Source: Alphaproteobacteria bacterium
GTDB taxonomy: Bacteria > Pseudomonadota > Alphaproteobacteria > MPNO01 > UBA830
Assembly (NCBI GenBank): GCA_038131485.1
Contig: JAYPPO010000010.1
Span: 521 to 64,520 of the forward strand
DNA length: 64,000 nt
Reading direction: 5' to 3'
The notes beneath the pieces were generated by a model, which did not search any database, was not told the DNA's origin, and worked only from the letters and a program-made list of their open reading frames with translations. Each line of letters opens with the position of its first letter. Positions within the stretch are counted from its first letter, which is position 1. Positions 1,931 through 8,983 of this stretch are shown in pieces. The translations under genes were made by a program, and so were the position numbers.

Positions 1931-2893
1931 ATGTACTACGACTTCGTACCCATGCCGGAACGCAAGCCGCTGAAGTGGCCCGACGGCAAACGCCTTGCCG
2001 TGTTCGTGACCTTCAATCTCGAATACTGGGACCTGACCAAGGACACCGAAGAATCCTACTACGCGGGAGGTCCCTCGATCCTGCCCGATCCCCTTCCCGG
2101 CAACGTCGCCGACATCCCGAATTACACGTGGCGCGAGTACGGCCAGCGGGTCGGCATCTGGCGCCTGTTCGACATCATGGATAAGGCCGGTGTCCCGGCT
2201 AGCTGTACGATGAACGCGAAGATGGGCATTGAACGGCCGCAGGCGATCAAGTACTGCGTCGAGCGCGGCTGGGAGCTTGTCGCGCATAACTATGTCCAGA
2301 CCGACCTTCTGACCAATTACTATTTCGATCCGGAGGGCGAGCGTCAGATCGTTCTGGAAACCATCGACGTTTACAAGAAGGTGGTCGGGAAGAAGCCCGC
2401 GGGCTGGCTGTCATCGTCACTCCGCACCAACCCGTCGACGGTCGACATCCTCGCCGAACAGGGGCTGCTCTACACTGCCGACTTCCTAAACGACGATCAG
2501 CCATACCTGATGCAGACGGACCACGGTCCCATCGTCTCGGTTCCCTACACGGTCGAGATCAACGATTTCATGATGTTCATGCGGCGCGGCAACTCCACCA
2601 GCGAGGCTTTCAACGTCATGAAAGAGCAGTTCGACACGCTCTACATGGAGGGCACCGAGAGTGGTCGGCTAATGAATCTTGGCCTGCACCCGCACGTCAT
2701 CGGCCAGCCCTTCCGCGCCCGCGCCCTCAGGGAATTCGTCGACTATGCCAAGCAGTTCCCAGACGTCTGGTGGACGACCCGGGAGGAGCTTGCGAAGTGG
2801 TATCTGAAAAACCACGAAAGCCATATTCCGCCGAAAAAGCGGCGGCGCGGCCGGACAGAAACGCCGGCCAACCAGAAACGCAGCCAAAGGTAG
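1931..2893 (+). CDS. Polysaccharide deacetylase family, PuuE/allantoinase-like
   Basis: WPDGKRLAV, NYTWREYGQRVGIWRL, DDQPY, GLHPHVIGQPFR; RBS GGAGG. Confidence 0.85.
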   Translation: MYYDFVPMPERKPLKWPDGKRLAVFVTFNLEYWDLTKDTEESYYAGGPSILPDPLPGNVADIPNYTWREYGQRVGIWRLFDIMDKAGVPASCTMNAKMGIERPQAIKYCVERGWELVAHNYVQTDLLTNYYFDPEGERQIVLETIDVYKKVVGKKPAGWLSSSLRTNPSTVDILAEQGLLYTADFLNDDQPYLMQTDHGPIVSVPYTVEINDFMMFMRRGNSTSEAFNVMKEQFDTLYMEGTESGRLMNLGLHPHVIGQPFRARALREFVDYAKQFPDVWWTTREELAKWYLKNHESHIPPKKRRRGRTETPANQKRSQR

Positions 2894-2971: not shown

Positions 2972-4072
2972 ATGCGTTCGGCCATGCCGTCTAACGGATC
3001 AGTGACGAAACCCGCGGACCTGTTTAACTATTTCCTGCGCTGCACACCGACACTCATTCTCGGGGCGGCCGGTGGCTGGCTTATGGAGCAGATCCATGCA
3101 CCGCTACCGTGGTTTTTCGGATCGCTTTTCGCCGTCGCCACTGTGAACATTGCCGGCTGGCGCGTCCGGAGCCCTAAGGGCGCTCGGCAGTGCGGCCAAA
3201 TCCTGATAGGCACCACGATCGGACTGTACTTCACGCCGGCGGTGGCGGCGGTCGTCGCCGCGCATCTGCCGTGGATGGTCCTTGTGGCAGTCGTCTCGAT
3301 CGGGCTTGGCGGTCTCGGCGGCGCAATCCTGATCCGCATCGCCAGGGTCGACGGCGCCACTGCATTCTTCGGCAACGTTCCAGGCGGTATGGCGGAGATG
3401 CTGGCACTCGGCGACAGGTTCGGCGCGCGACCCGACCAGCTCACGCTCTCTCAACTCACCCGTGTAACCATCGTCATTCTGTCGATCCCGCCCGCGCTCA
3501 CCTTCTTCGGCGAGACTGGCGAAAACATTTTCGTCCCCTTCGCACGTGAGGTGGACTATCCGCTGCTCGCCTGTCTGCTAGGGGCGTCCGTTATCAGCGC
3601 GTTCGCTCTTTTCAAGGTACGCCTGCCCAACTGCTGGATGCTCGGCGCCGCCATCCTCAGCAGCCTGCTAACCATCTTCGAGATCGAGATGTCTGCAATG
3701 CCGAAGGATCTACTCAGCGTGGCGCAGGTATTGATTGGCATTGCACTCGGCGAGCGGTTTGACCGCACGTCTTTCACCAGCGCGCCGCGCGTAATCGTAG
3801 GCTCGGCGATTACGACGGTCTTAATGATGGGGCTGGCCGTTGCTCTCGCCATGTTCATTGCGGGACAGACGGAGATCGTGCCGACTGCGATGATCGCCGC
3901 GACGGCGCCGGGCGGGCTCGCCGAAATGAGCCTTACGGCCGCAGTGCTAAAGCTGGGCGTCCCGCTGGTGACCGCCTATCACGTCGTCCGGATTCTGATG
4001 ATCACTGCCTTCACCCTACCGGCGTTCTATCTTGCACGGCGCCTCATGCAACCGGCGGGACGCGCATCTTGA
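2972..4072 (+). CDS. AbrB-family (AidB regulator / putative ammonia monooxygenase family) duplicated membrane protein
   Basis: Many TM segments; two internal repeats PLPWFFG/LPNCWMLG and PGGMAEM/PGGLAEM. Start could be GTG at 3002. Confidence 0.8.
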   Translation: MRSAMPSNGSVTKPADLFNYFLRCTPTLILGAAGGWLMEQIHAPLPWFFGSLFAVATVNIAGWRVRSPKGARQCGQILIGTTIGLYFTPAVAAVVAAHLPWMVLVAVVSIGLGGLGGAILIRIARVDGATAFFGNVPGGMAEMLALGDRFGARPDQLTLSQLTRVTIVILSIPPALTFFGETGENIFVPFAREVDYPLLACLLGASVISAFALFKVRLPNCWMLGAAILSSLLTIFEIEMSAMPKDLLSVAQVLIGIALGERFDRTSFTSAPRVIVGSAITTVLMMGLAVALAMFIAGQTEIVPTAMIAATAPGGLAEMSLTAAVLKLGVPLVTAYHVVRILMITAFTLPAFYLARRLMQPAGRAS

Positions 4073-5067
4073 TCGACGCCGTCATCCTCGATGCGCTCCG
4101 TCAGATTGGCCTTCTTGCTGACGGGGAAACGCCAGCTGCCGAAGCGCTGACTGGCGGCGTTTCGTCCGATATATGGAAGGTCACGTCGGCCCACGGTACG
4201 TTCTGCATCAAGCGTGCGCTCGCGAAGCTTCGCACCGAAAAGGACTGGTTCGCGCCCGTCTCGCGCAACTCGAACGAGGCGGCCTGGATTCGCATCGCCG
4301 CCCAGGCTGTGCCGTCGGGCGTGCCTGAACTGATCGGGGAGGGCTCGGACACCGGCATGTTCGCGATGGCATATCTCGACCCGGCCGATCACCCGGTTTG
4401 GAAGTCGCTGCTGCGCGACGGTCATGTCCTACCGGGATCGGCGAAAGCGGTCGGCGATGCACTGGGCCGTATCCACGCGGCCACTGCCGGCGACGCAGCC
4501 ATAGCTGAGCGCTTCGCGACGGACGACATTTTTCACGCCATCCGGCTGGAGCCCTATCTGCTACGCACTGCAGAAGCCCATCCCGATCTTGCCGACCGGC
4601 TGCGCGACCTGGCTAGCTTGACGGCTGAAACCCGTCTCGCCCTCGTCCATGGCGACGTGAGCCCCAAGAACATCCTCATCGGTCCTGAGGGCCCCGTGTT
4701 CCTGGACGCGGAATGCGCATGGTACGGCGACCCGGCATTCGATCTCGCTTTCTGCCTGAACCACATGTTGCTGAAATGCGTCTGGCGTCCGCAATGGGCG
4801 GACCGATACCTCGCATGCTTCCATGAACTGCGAGACGCCTATCTGCACCATGTGTCGTGGGAGCCGGCCGGCACGATGGAAGCGCGAACAGCTGCCCTTC
4901 TCCCGGGCCTTCTTCTCGCACGCATCGACGGAACGTCTCCGGTAGAGTACATCACGGAAGAGAGCGACAAAGACTGCGTACGCCGCGCCGCGCGCGCCGG
5001 TCTGTGCGAGGACACGGAAAGGCTGGAGAACGTCGCGACGCTTTTCCGCCAATCGTTAGGTATATGA
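4069..5067 (+). CDS. APH/choline-kinase-fold phosphotransferase (methylthioribose kinase-like)
   Basis: LTGGVSSDIW loop, IKRALAKLR, Brenner motif HGDVSPKNIL, LDAECAWYGDPAFD; TTGA and ATGA overlaps with both neighbours. Confidence 0.82.
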   Translation: MIDAVILDALRQIGLLADGETPAAEALTGGVSSDIWKVTSAHGTFCIKRALAKLRTEKDWFAPVSRNSNEAAWIRIAAQAVPSGVPELIGEGSDTGMFAMAYLDPADHPVWKSLLRDGHVLPGSAKAVGDALGRIHAATAGDAAIAERFATDDIFHAIRLEPYLLRTAEAHPDLADRLRDLASLTAETRLALVHGDVSPKNILIGPEGPVFLDAECAWYGDPAFDLAFCLNHMLLKCVWRPQWADRYLACFHELRDAYLHHVSWEPAGTMEARTAALLPGLLLARIDGTSPVEYITEESDKDCVRRAARAGLCEDTERLENVATLFRQSLGI

Positions 5068-6329
5068 GCAACAACAACATAACGGGCATCGCCGCTCGGC
5101 GTGTCTGGGACTCCCGCGGCAGGCCGACGGTCGAGGTCGAGGCGATCCTGTCTGGCGGCGCAACAGGCCGGGCGATCGCGCCCGCCGGCGCTTCCAGGGG
5201 AGCCAACGAGGCGATCGATCTGCGGGACGGCGGCAAAGACCTCGGCGGCTTCGGCGTCGAAAAGGCGCTCGACAACATCGCCGATGAAATTGCGCCCCTT
5301 CTCGAAGGGATGGACGCGGAGGACCAAGAGGCCGTCGATCTAGCGATGATCGAGTGCGACGACACAGACGACAAATCCCGGCTCGGCGGCAATGCGATCG
5401 TCGCGGTCTCAATGGCGGTGCTCAGCGCGATGGCGACGAGCCGCAAGCTCCCCCTCTGGCGGCATCTCGCGGGAGATGCGCAGGTTCGGCTGCCGATGCC
5501 AGAGATCCAGATCTTCGGCGGCGGCGCGCATGCCGGCCGCTGGGTCGACATCCAGGATTTTATGGCCATCCCTGTGGGAGCCGAGACATTCGACGAGGCA
5601 CTCGAGATGGTCGCCGAAGTCTATCTCGCTGCCGGCCAGCTGATGCAGGACGCGGGCAAACTTGGGGGCGTTGCCGACGAAGGCGGATGGTGGCCGGCGT
5701 TCGACACCAACGAGGAAGCGCTCGACACGCTGGTCCAGGCCATCGAGAAAGCGGGCCTCCAGCCCGGCGTCGACGTTGCGATTTCGCTCGATATCGCCGC
5801 CTCGGAGTTCGGCAAGAACGGCTGCTACCGGCTTGGCCTCGAAAAACGCGAACTCGACGGCGACGGCATGATTGAACTACTTGCGGGCTGGCTCGACCGA
5901 TACCCAATCTTCTCCATCGAGGATCCCCTCGGTGAGGACGATCCGGAGAATATGAAACGCTTCACGGAGCGTTTCGGTGACGAGGTCCAGATCGTTGGCG
6001 ATGATTTTCTCGTTACCAGCGCCGAGCGCGTGGCGAATGCGGCTTACGCGGGCATCTGCAATTCGGTCCTGATCAAGCCAAATCAGGCAGGCACCGTGAC
6101 CGAGACCAAGGCCGCGCTCGACACGGCCAGGGACGCCGGCTGGGGCACCATCGTCTCTGCCCGGTCGGGCGAAACAGAGGACGTCACTATCGCGCACCTC
6201 GCCGTCGGCTGGAACGCTGGACAGCTCAAGGTCGGTTCGTTTGCCCGCTCTGAGCGGATGGCTAAATGGAACGAGGTCCTGCGCATCGAGGAAGCCATGG
6301 GCGATCGCGCCCGCCTCGCTGGAACCTGA
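5064..6329 (+). CDS. eno: Enolase paralog with altered active-site motifs
   Basis: DSRGRPTVEVE, DEGG, DIAASE, SIEDP, VGDD, LIKPNQ, RSGETED, RSERMAKWN; ATG at 5064. Confidence 0.88.
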   Translation: MSNNNITGIAARRVWDSRGRPTVEVEAILSGGATGRAIAPAGASRGANEAIDLRDGGKDLGGFGVEKALDNIADEIAPLLEGMDAEDQEAVDLAMIECDDTDDKSRLGGNAIVAVSMAVLSAMATSRKLPLWRHLAGDAQVRLPMPEIQIFGGGAHAGRWVDIQDFMAIPVGAETFDEALEMVAEVYLAAGQLMQDAGKLGGVADEGGWWPAFDTNEEALDTLVQAIEKAGLQPGVDVAISLDIAASEFGKNGCYRLGLEKRELDGDGMIELLAGWLDRYPIFSIEDPLGEDDPENMKRFTERFGDEVQIVGDDFLVTSAERVANAAYAGICNSVLIKPNQAGTVTETKAALDTARDAGWGTIVSARSGETEDVTIAHLAVGWNAGQLKVGSFARSERMAKWNEVLRIEEAMGDRARLAGT

Positions 6330-6339
6330 GGCAAAGAAC

Positions 6340-7284
6340 ATGAAGGCCGTTCTCCAGTACCGTGCGAGCCCAGGGTTCCAGAACCGCATTGTCGCTCAGG
6401 CCCCAGACTGGCTCGACGTCGTCATCGTTGACGAGGCGGAAAAGGATGCCTTCGCAACCGAAATGCGTGACGCCGACGTGCTGCTGCACGTGCTCGAACC
6501 CGTCACCGTGGCCAGCATCAAGGGCGCGCCCTCACTCGCCCTAATCCAGAAGATCGGTGTCGGTGTGAACACCATCGACCTGGAGACCGCCCGTAAGCGT
6601 GAGGTCGCCGTCTGCAACATGCCGGGCACGAACTCGCGCGCCGTCGCAGAAATGACGCTCGCGCTGATGCTCTCGGCGCTCAGGCGCGTCCCCTTCTTCG
6701 ATCGCCTCATGAGAAGAGGTGAAGGCTGGACTACGCCGCTAGAAGCCTTCGACCGGACCGGCGAGGTCGCGGGCCGGACGGTGGGCCTAATCGGCTATGG
6801 CGAGGTTGCGCGGCTGATCGCGCCCGTGCTGTCCGCAATGGGCGCGACGGTACTCTATACCGCGACGGCGCCGAAGGACGACGCCGTCGCGGACTGGCGG
6901 TCGCTCGAAGCCTTGCTGGCCGAGGCCGACATCCTCTCGCTGCACGTGCCGCTGACGCCCGATACCGAAAAGATCATCGATGCCGCTGCCATAGACTGGA
7001 TGAAATCAGACGCAATCATCGTTAATACCGCGCGCGGCGGCTTGATCGACGAGGCCGCGATGGTCAAGGCGCTCAAATCGGGAAAGTTGCGCGCCGCCGG
7101 CCTTGACGTCTTGACCGTGGAACCAGCGCCCGCCGGAAACCCGCTGTTCGAACTTGAGAATGTCGTCCTGATGCCGCACGTCGCTTGGCTGACGCCGGAA
7201 ACGCTCGACCGCAGCCTCGGGATTGCATTTGAGAACTGCCGGCGATTAAAGGACGGAGAGGAATTGCTTTACCGCGTCGCTTGA
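6340..7284 (+). CDS. D-isomer-specific 2-hydroxyacid dehydrogenase
   Basis: GLIGYGEVA Rossmann motif, LHVPLT, NTARGG, LDV...EP, PHVAW; ATG 10 nt after the enolase stop. Confidence 0.9.
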   Translation: MKAVLQYRASPGFQNRIVAQAPDWLDVVIVDEAEKDAFATEMRDADVLLHVLEPVTVASIKGAPSLALIQKIGVGVNTIDLETARKREVAVCNMPGTNSRAVAEMTLALMLSALRRVPFFDRLMRRGEGWTTPLEAFDRTGEVAGRTVGLIGYGEVARLIAPVLSAMGATVLYTATAPKDDAVADWRSLEALLAEADILSLHVPLTPDTEKIIDAAAIDWMKSDAIIVNTARGGLIDEAAMVKALKSGKLRAAGLDVLTVEPAPAGNPLFELENVVLMPHVAWLTPETLDRSLGIAFENCRRLKDGEELLYRVA

Positions 7285-7296
7285 CGCGTAAAGGGC

Positions 7297-8137
7297 CTAT
7301 TCGGGCTTGCGGAATTGCTGGATACCCCACGCCAGATAACCGGTTTCCGCGGCGTTTACCCAGTTCCCTAGCCCCTGGATCATGCGGTCGACGTATTCCT
7401 TGCTCGACAGCACGCACATTCGGTCGTAATTGCCAGTCAGCATTTCGCGGACACGGTTGTAGTGCGACCGCAGATGCGGCGACAGGATGTCGTCTGCGAC
7501 GTGCTGCATCCCTGACGTTGCCGCCAACTGCTTGTACAGCGCGAACGACCCGAGATTGTCGAGATGGATCCGCGCCAGCACGGAGCCAAGGACGTCCTCA
7601 GGGCAGTCGTCGGCCTGCATCGGATCGGTAAATACCAGCGAACCGCCCGGCTTCAGGACCCGGAACACCTCGTCCATCACGGTTTGCTTGCGGCCACTGT
7701 GCAGGATCGCATCCTGCGACCAGACGAGGTCATAGCTTCTGTCCGCTTCTGGCAGGTCTTCGAAGTTGCCGTATTTGACTTCGATGAGGTTTGCGAGCCC
7801 CTGCTCCGCATTCAGGCGCTCGTTGGTCGCGTTCTGCGTCCGCGAGATATTGAGGCAGACGACACGGCAGCCATAGGTTTTCGCGAGAAACCTCGCGGAA
7901 CCGCCGTAGCCCGCTCCGATATCGAGCACCTTAGTCTTCGCGTCGATGGGCTCGGCCGCCTTCGCCATGCGCTCGACCGTTAATCGGCTTGCCGTCCGGA
8001 TATCATCGGTCGTGTCGTAGAGCCCGATATGGATGTCCTCGCCGCCCCAGATGTTGAAATAGAAGCGGTCGGCTTCGTCGCTATCGTAATAGGTCTCCGT
8101 GATCCGGGCGACTTCTTCCGCCCGCGCCGCTCCAGAA

Positions 8138-8145
<8 letters not shown>
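7297..8145 (-). CDS. Sarcosine/dimethylglycine N-methyltransferase (SDMT)
   Basis: YYDSDEADRFY..IWGGEDIHIGLY, VLDIGAGYGG, WSQDAILH, FTDPMQAD, LAWGI; start overlaps GSMT stop. Confidence 0.88.

Positions 8146-8983
<838 letters not shown>

Follow-up and report, generated by a model that had tools for sequence, protein, structure and literature searches.

Enolase (EC 4.2.1.11; TIGR01060; PF03952 and PF00113) is a two-domain housekeeping enzyme, and to our knowledge the enolase family proper is usually treated as a single-reaction family. In the serine cycle and in the glucarate and glyoxylate pathways, the glycerate branch runs from hydroxypyruvate reductase or tartronate-semialdehyde reductase through glycerate 2-kinase to enolase. 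This article describes a variant enolase gene and the kinase gene coupled to it in a stretch of 64,000 nucleotides from an alphaproteobacterial genome (GenBank assembly GCA_038131485.1, contig JAYPPO010000010.1, positions 521 to 64,520), which is called the window throughout. The encoded protein shares the two-domain fold and the metal and catalytic residues of housekeeping enolase and differs from it by Asp in place of Glu168, by Ala in place of His373, by Ser or Gly in the N-I-x-N-G-G loop of its branch, by the kinase that accompanies it and by a score on the family model about 190 bits below that of the canonical copy. Residue numbers and roles (Glu168, His373, Glu211, Lys345, Lys396, Ser39, His159) follow yeast enolase.

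The dehydrogenase, kinase and enolase genes found here match three consecutive steps of the glycerate branch, from which they differ in that the kinase has the APH/MtnK fold and coexists with class I and class II glycerate kinases. The closest fold to this kinase is that of methylthioribose kinase, MtnK (TIGR01767; PDB 2pyw, 2olc and 2pul), with which it shares the HGD..N loop and the DxE site. Another described system is the lanthipeptide dehydratase LxmK/LxmY (PDB 9dk3), in which a kinase of the APH fold also activates a hydroxyl before elimination; LxmK is among the structural neighbors of the window kinase. There, however, phosphate is the leaving group on peptide Ser/Thr, whereas here C2 would be expected to retain it and water to be lost from C3. 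A search of full-text literature, with subscription journals and supplements outside its reach, found no paper that treats an enolase with a linked kinase or with the Asp/Ala pair, and the part of PMC12994016 available concerns threonate dehydrogenase and has no bearing on this branch. The conserved enolase variant tied to its own kinase is real, and its branch is uncharacterized in the literature found.

A two-residue switch in the enolase fold

The gene and the two codons in question, both read directly, are the following.

5064..6329, + strand: variant enolase of 421 aa, a stop-free frame with Enolase_N and Enolase_C domains, TIGR01060
5556..5558, + strand: GAT codon for Asp165 (DIQDFM), replacing the Glu of canonical enolases
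6159..6161, + strand: GCC codon for Ala366 (VSARSG), replacing the His of canonical enolases

The window gene encodes a complete, conserved enzyme of the enolase fold that belongs to a large kinase-coupled branch. It scores 153.6 bits for Enolase_N and 308.5 bits for Enolase_C (Pfam), as well as 493.2 bits on TIGR01060, the NCBIfam enolase equivalog (cut-off 300). Its best PDB match is chain 7ckp (E 5e-117), in the alignment of which diqefm faces diqdfm and shrsgeted faces sarsgeted. The original prediction, made from the sequence alone, held that the Mg ligands, the catalytic Lys, Glu and His and the QLK motif were retained and that SHRS had become SARS and QEF had become QDF; the codons confirm both changes, and the retained set was borne out. 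The motifs DIAASE, IEDP, GDD, LIKPNQ, DEGG, GAHAG and QLK are all kept, the metal ligands (Ser39, Asp246, Glu295 and Asp320) and the acid/base residues Lys345, Glu211 and Lys396 are all present and invariant among 61 aligned relatives, and the equivalents of Arg374, Ser375 and His159 are kept as well. The alignment of these 61 sequences has 95 invariant columns, all catalytic ones included, and a mean column identity of 76%. Since a second, canonical enolase is encoded on contig C9 of the same genome (680 bits on TIGR01060), the window gene is a paralog. Five of five further carrier genomes likewise have a canonical enolase of 675-687 bits beside a paralog of 469-479 bits, and the variant clade as a whole spans 469-494 bits.

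The two substitutions recur in relatives. In species genomes, 592 relatives were detected, and the best 80 of the 592, at 61-71% identity, were retained as loci. Alpha- and Betaproteobacteria are represented among them, as are a few Acidobacteriota and other metagenome-assembled genomes (MAGs); together with 80 metagenome loci they make up the 160 loci referred to below. The motif alignment held 84 paralog rows, that is, the window protein, 78 of the 80 genome loci and five repeats of those loci, two genome loci with a high-scoring segment pair below 380 aa being left out. QD occurs in all 84 rows, SARS in 83 and SGRS in one, while all seven canonical copies in the same alignment read QEF and SHRS. 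For a family-wide sample, 23,062 matches were reduced to representatives at 50% identity, and the best 150 of these were taken together with the window protein; the sample comprises 85 Glu/His, 35 Asp/Ala and 6 Asp/Gly pairs, the remainder being mixed. At strict thresholds, columns 168 and 373 are the only ones that separate 84 canonical from 39 variant representatives: Asp168 with Ala or Gly373 is found in 39/39 variants and 0/84 canonical rows, and Glu/His in 84/84 canonical rows. The substitutions are thus shared by a whole group and not unique to the window sequence.

The next separators appear at looser thresholds. One is the second Asn of the N-I-x-N-G-G loop motif (window residue 152), which is kept in 79/84 canonical rows and replaced by Ser in 22/39 and by Gly in 13/39 variants; another is the Gly before Asp-Glu211 (Gly in 82/84 canonical rows, Ala in 28/39 variants). 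QIFGGG and PAGASR, which had been listed beside the two main changes, are present in the window protein, but in the variant group as a whole residue 152 is either Ser or Gly and positions 41 and 45 are variable, so that QIFGGG and PAGAS(R/T) are features of a subclade.

Trees were built without the trait columns. A FastTree tree of 140 rows placed all 84 Glu/His rows inside one group of 90 (support 94) and the window protein in a starred group of 20 variant-type rows. An IQ-TREE quick tree, made from 32 canonical rows drawn randomly from 82 and all 39 variant rows, required three label changes against a shuffled mean of 23.6, with the window protein in a starred clade of 13 variant rows. The arrangement of all 39 variants as one clade was not rejected by the approximately unbiased (AU) test (p 0.27) which, with the three label changes, makes a single origin of the variant enolases possible. 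Of the suggestion that SARS and QDF enolases group together and are linked to the kinase, the linkage is well documented (see below) and the single clade is compatible with the trees.

The variant clade is present in several phyla. The alteration of two residues that are invariant in canonical enzymes would agree with a copy that is decaying, inactive or active only in a moonlighting role; such a status is hardly credible for an intact frame with 95 invariant columns and such a distribution. The statement that the changes do not reflect decay is therefore supported, given a switch fixed across a large old clade, an invariant catalytic set and translational coupling to a conserved kinase. Some 50%-identity representatives near the variant branch have no Glu211, and this loss in offshoots makes this side of the family seem to be diversifying. 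A third enolase-family gene (358 bits) was noted in one Paraburkholderia genome (locus L094, G003:C131:223576-224784); it does not have the Glu211 motif, with ASSYGY for DEGG and SGRSGG for SHRSGE.

The partner kinase and its operon

Linkage of the kinase to the variant enolase was counted by tblastn, because the choice of open reading frames by GC3 (GC content at third codon positions) misses some kinase genes. A kinase was scored as adjacent when found at most 450 bp upstream on the same strand, in loci with at least 1.1 kb of upstream sequence. By this measure it immediately precedes the enolase gene in 62 of 74 genome loci and in 39 of 46 loci from metagenomes; at any position in the locus, the kinase is found in 72/80 and 49/80, respectively. 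Kinase-enolase fusions occur among the variants (P0126, 770 aa; P0155, 745 aa; P0121, N-terminally truncated), and the fusions of canonical enolases involve unrelated domains. These data bear on the reading that the variant is a second glycolytic isozyme of the ordinary kind, drawing on the cellular pool of 2-phosphoglycerate, with the kinase as an unrelated neighbor. The protein does pass the TIGR01060 cut-off, and its close relatives are labeled enolase or phosphopyruvate hydratase by their sources; but adjacency of about 84% in loci from several phyla, the fusions, the fixed two-residue switch and clade scores of 469-494 bits against 675-687 for the housekeeping copies of the same genomes render that reading improbable.

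The coupled run in the window starts with abrB and consists, besides the enolase, of the first three genes given here, the fourth lying just upstream.

2972..4072, + strand: AbrB-duplication membrane protein, putative transporter (PF05145, 246 bits)
4069..5067, + strand: MtnK-fold (APH family) small-molecule kinase, 332 aa, TTG start (Pfam APH, 71 bits)
6340..7284, + strand: D-isomer-specific 2-hydroxyacid dehydrogenase, 314 aa (Pfam 2-Hacid_dh_C, 180 bits)
1931..2893, + strand: PuuE-like polysaccharide-deacetylase-family protein (TIGR03212, 163 bits, cut-off 424.6)

The junctions were read directly: the TTG start of the kinase gene overlaps the stop of abrB, the enolase ATG and the TGA that ends the kinase gene overlap as ATGA, and the ATG of the dehydrogenase gene, at 6340, lies 10 bases past the enolase stop. 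The order abrB-kinase-enolase-dehydrogenase is also found in loci L025 and L095; the latter, the nearest relative (81%), continues with a gene for a FAH-family hydrolase. A counterpart of the deacetylase gene, 82% identical, occupies the same place in L025 and is found in none of the other loci, so that this protein is possibly an operon member in this lineage only. An ortholog of the dehydrogenase occurs in 14/80 genome and 13/80 metagenome loci, about one in six. The dehydrogenase reaches no NCBIfam equivalog, and the nearest PDB entries of its ortholog in L025 are phosphoglycerate dehydrogenases and glyoxylate/glycerate reductases.

The kinase passes the cut-off of no curated family; on TIGR01767 it scores 42.1 bits, far below the required 275, and 2pyw is its sole PDB sequence match. 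In its AlphaFold (AF2) model (pLDDT 94) the closest folds are methylthioribose kinases, with TM scores of 0.80-0.88 normalized to the query; the window kinase is nevertheless only 13-17% identical to them and about 60-90 residues shorter, and methionine-salvage genes are not found near it. It matches the APH family and neither class I (PF02595) nor class II (MOFRL, PF05161) glycerate kinase, and the Protein Atlas offers the generic name 'phosphotransferase' only. Its invariant positions comprise the HGD..N catalytic loop, the DxE metal site and many Arg and Lys residues, the last of which suggest an anionic substrate, presumably an acid.

Beyond the pair, context varies among loci. In a marine Rhodospirillales MAG (L010, 965-6999) genes for a TRAP transporter and for a member of the PrpB/carboxy-PEP-mutase family, which handles substrates like phosphoenolpyruvate (PEP), directly precede the pair and thus adjoin a putative maker of a PEP analog. 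A cupin gene precedes the variant enolase in eight loci of Rhizobium, Paraburkholderia and Trinickia (L028, L031, L037, L053, L058, L065, L069 and L071); in five of the eight (L028, L031, L037, L053 and L065) a gene for an HpaD-like extradiol dioxygenase lies downstream, followed by CMD-family, zinc-dependent alcohol dehydrogenase and FMN-reductase genes in varying combinations. The kinase and a dehydrogenase lie about 5 kb away on the opposite strand in three of the cupin loci, an aromatic-type context unlike the rest. Downstream of the operon in the window, the minus strand carries genes for a glycine/sarcosine N-methyltransferase (7297-8169; 483 bits, cut-off 350) and a sarcosine/dimethylglycine N-methyltransferase-like protein (8138-8983; 320 bits, under the cut-off of 550); both would serve the synthesis of glycine betaine from glycine, which fits a salt-adapted marine organism.

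Candidate substrates of the pair

The variant enolase probably ends a side route into products of the phosphoenolpyruvate type. As a working outline, with a little less than an even chance of being right, a 2,3-dihydroxy acid would be phosphorylated and then dehydrated to a phosphoenol product. The dehydrogenase would reduce a 3-hydroxy-2-oxo acid to the (2R)-2,3-dihydroxy acid and the kinase would phosphorylate its 2-hydroxyl at the expense of ATP; the variant enolase would then remove the C2 proton through the Lys345 equivalent and the 3-hydroxyl through the Glu211 equivalent, giving a phosphoenol-2-oxo acid, the phosphate of which could go back to ADP. A 2-phospho acid is expected as substrate from the retention of the phosphate-binding Arg and Ser and of the loop His. 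With D-glycerate, the simplest substrate, the series would be hydroxypyruvate, glycerate, 2-phosphoglycerate and PEP, and the pair would constitute a self-contained, perhaps channeled funnel plugged into many catabolic operons.

The case for glycerate comes from the neighborhoods, since these converge on pathways ending in glycerate, of which the gar operon and the serine cycle are examples, and since the bare pair points to common metabolites at both ends. The pair adjoins garR and garL in one locus (L015, in the order LacI-type regulator, garR, class II glycerate kinase, garL, kinase, enolase, major facilitator superfamily transporter, dehydrogenase) and formate dehydrogenase and formate-tetrahydrofolate ligase genes in two others (L007, 249-9057; L140, 14-8409), where fdsB, fdsA, kinase, enolase and the ligase gene follow one another on one strand. 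The last two are Burkholderiales MAGs, and fdsB and fdsA are genes of NAD-linked formate dehydrogenase. Many loci carry the bare kinase-enolase pair, the commonest form of the operon, and no recurring dedicated consumer of an unusual product or PEP analog was found among the surveyed loci; both points argue for a mainstream input and output.

Several observations weigh against glycerate. Among 400 sampled genomes of the class, 37 have the partner kinase (the 363 non-carriers include an unpublished genome, G212), and classical glycerate kinases were counted in this sample: a MOFRL (class II) kinase is present in 29/37 carriers against 160/363 non-carriers, and a class I kinase in 11/401 genomes. 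In L015 the class II kinase and the pair even share one operon. The pair thus looks redundant for glycerate, although the coexistence count is a weak argument, given the non-independence of related genomes and the large genome size of carriers. A canonical enolase is kept in 6/6 carrier genomes checked, and the variant is never the sole enolase there. In yeast enolase, moreover, the E168Q mutant and mutants of H373 are reported to be severely defective in eliminating the hydroxyl. If the substrate were plain 2-phosphoglycerate, the fixed switch to Asp168 and Ala/Gly373 would be left without explanation, and a strictly conserved change confined to the two residues that flank the leaving hydroxyl resembles a change of specificity. 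From the coexistence and the position of the switch, glycerate is held as the substrate tentatively, at somewhat less than even probability.

The same considerations give some weight to the same two-step chemistry with another 2,3-dihydroxy acid, for which the smaller Asp168 and Ala373 would make room at C3 and the product would be a PEP analog; candidates for the substrate are C4 acids and acids substituted at C3, such as erythronate, threonate and 2,3-dihydroxybutyrate, as well as other analogs. This is judged possible, with the balance tilted against it. In its favor are the strict separators, which are only the two residues next to the 3-hydroxyl (39 versus 84 representatives), the next separators, namely the change of Asn to Ser/Gly in the loop of the active site and that of Gly to Ala just ahead of Glu211, the standard glycerate kinase and enolase beside the pair, the offshoots without Glu211, and the frequency of sugar-acid neighbors such as short-chain dehydrogenase/reductase (SDR) genes, FAH-family hydrolases, HpcH/GarL aldolases and LacI regulators. 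Two side-chain changes would, however, give scant room in a closed active site, and the predominance of the bare pair with no recurring consumer of a PEP analog speaks against it as well, as does the failure of its glucarate/galactarate version: the pair as the missing dehydratase of the gar operon of L015 was ruled out by the presence of GarD (909 bits) and GudD (888 bits) elsewhere in that genome. The original prediction had favored a different substrate or stereochemistry. A different substrate is consistent with columns 168 and 373 as the only separators and with the coexisting standard enzymes, but sits less well with glycerate-type neighbors (garR, garL, glycerate kinase and formate genes) and no dedicated consumer; a changed stereochemistry at C2 fits poorly with a D-isomer-specific dehydrogenase as partner.

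With glycerate as the substrate, the pair might have been a replacement for glycerate kinase; this was rejected, carriers not being short of classical kinases (29/37 with class II). Glyoxylate carboligase and tartronate-semialdehyde reductase were over their cut-offs in 0/5 genomes, these being five of the eight carriers without a class I or II kinase. The genome of the window itself carries, at 731-746 kb of contig C2 (L185), glcD-glcE-glcF beside a divergent gene for a class II glycerate 2-kinase and a gene for pyruvate kinase, a conventional glycolate (glycolate oxidase)/glycerate funnel.

The F420 neighborhood and meaning for the enolase family

The contig of the window starts inside cofD, and genes of coenzyme F420 synthesis lie about 1.1 kb upstream of the deacetylase gene, among them the following.

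205-786, + strand: cofC (142 bits, cut-off 105)

The end of contig C9 (96-100.5 kb, L177) carries cofE-cofD-cofC-ppiC. Its overlap with the start of C10, the contig of the window, consists of cofC and ppiC together with portions of cofD and of the unnamed reading frame after ppiC, with proteins 86-97% identical; the two contig ends are probably one locus assembled twice from strain variants. Genome G406 has a single cofC, and the deacetylase-abrB-kinase-enolase-dehydrogenase run known from the window follows it at a distance of 70 bp; cofE-cofD lie another 6 kb upstream. In the excerpt of PMC8498797 available, the kinase ('CofB') that should make 2-phospho-L-lactate is still termed unidentified.

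This neighborhood bears on a further reading, in which the variant enolase would perform the enolization half-reaction only, as a racemase or epimerase of a 2-phospho acid, supplying CofC in this lineage (the 'CofB' step). The cofE-cofD-cofC genes just upstream, the arrangement in G406 and the presence of cofC above cut-off in 15/37 kinase carriers against 49/363 non-carriers agree with it, and weakened residues near the 3-hydroxyl would suit a non-eliminating enzyme. On the other hand, cofC is within 6-7 kb of the pair in only 2/160 loci and not present in 22/37 carriers, and Glu211 is kept. The gene order common to the window and G406 also includes unrelated NAD(P)HX repair and isochorismatase genes, so that linkage of cofC to the pair may be mere inheritance. 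Such a half-reaction is rated quite improbable. The supply of the F420 head group by the pair was rejected as a general function, cofC/cofD linkage being lineage-specific and not consistent across loci; that the module feeds CofC in this lineage and fills the missing step of 2-phospho-acid supply in F420 synthesis is more doubtful still. The F420 neighborhood, new here together with the coexistence with classical glycerate kinases, is a weak lead with a very small chance of holding.

The two readings with a 2,3-dihydroxy acid as substrate differ in what they would mean. If the pair converts glycerate to PEP, it would represent a fourth, non-homologous kind of glycerate kinase with a private enolase, which would matter for the reconstruction of C1, oxalate, glyoxylate and sugar-acid assimilation. 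Alternatively, and with the odds somewhat against it, the Asp168 and Ala/Gly373 branch may not be a 2-phosphoglycerate enolase and may form with its kinase an undescribed, ATP-neutral route of phosphorylation followed by dehydration for another 2,3-dihydroxy acid. Since databases label the variants plainly as enolase, metabolic models silently count them as glycolysis; a substrate of its own for the branch would give a function to a widespread two-gene pathway (37/400 genomes of the class, several phyla). Within the enolase family proper it would also be the first case of a separate catalytic function, and the textbook single-function family would split.

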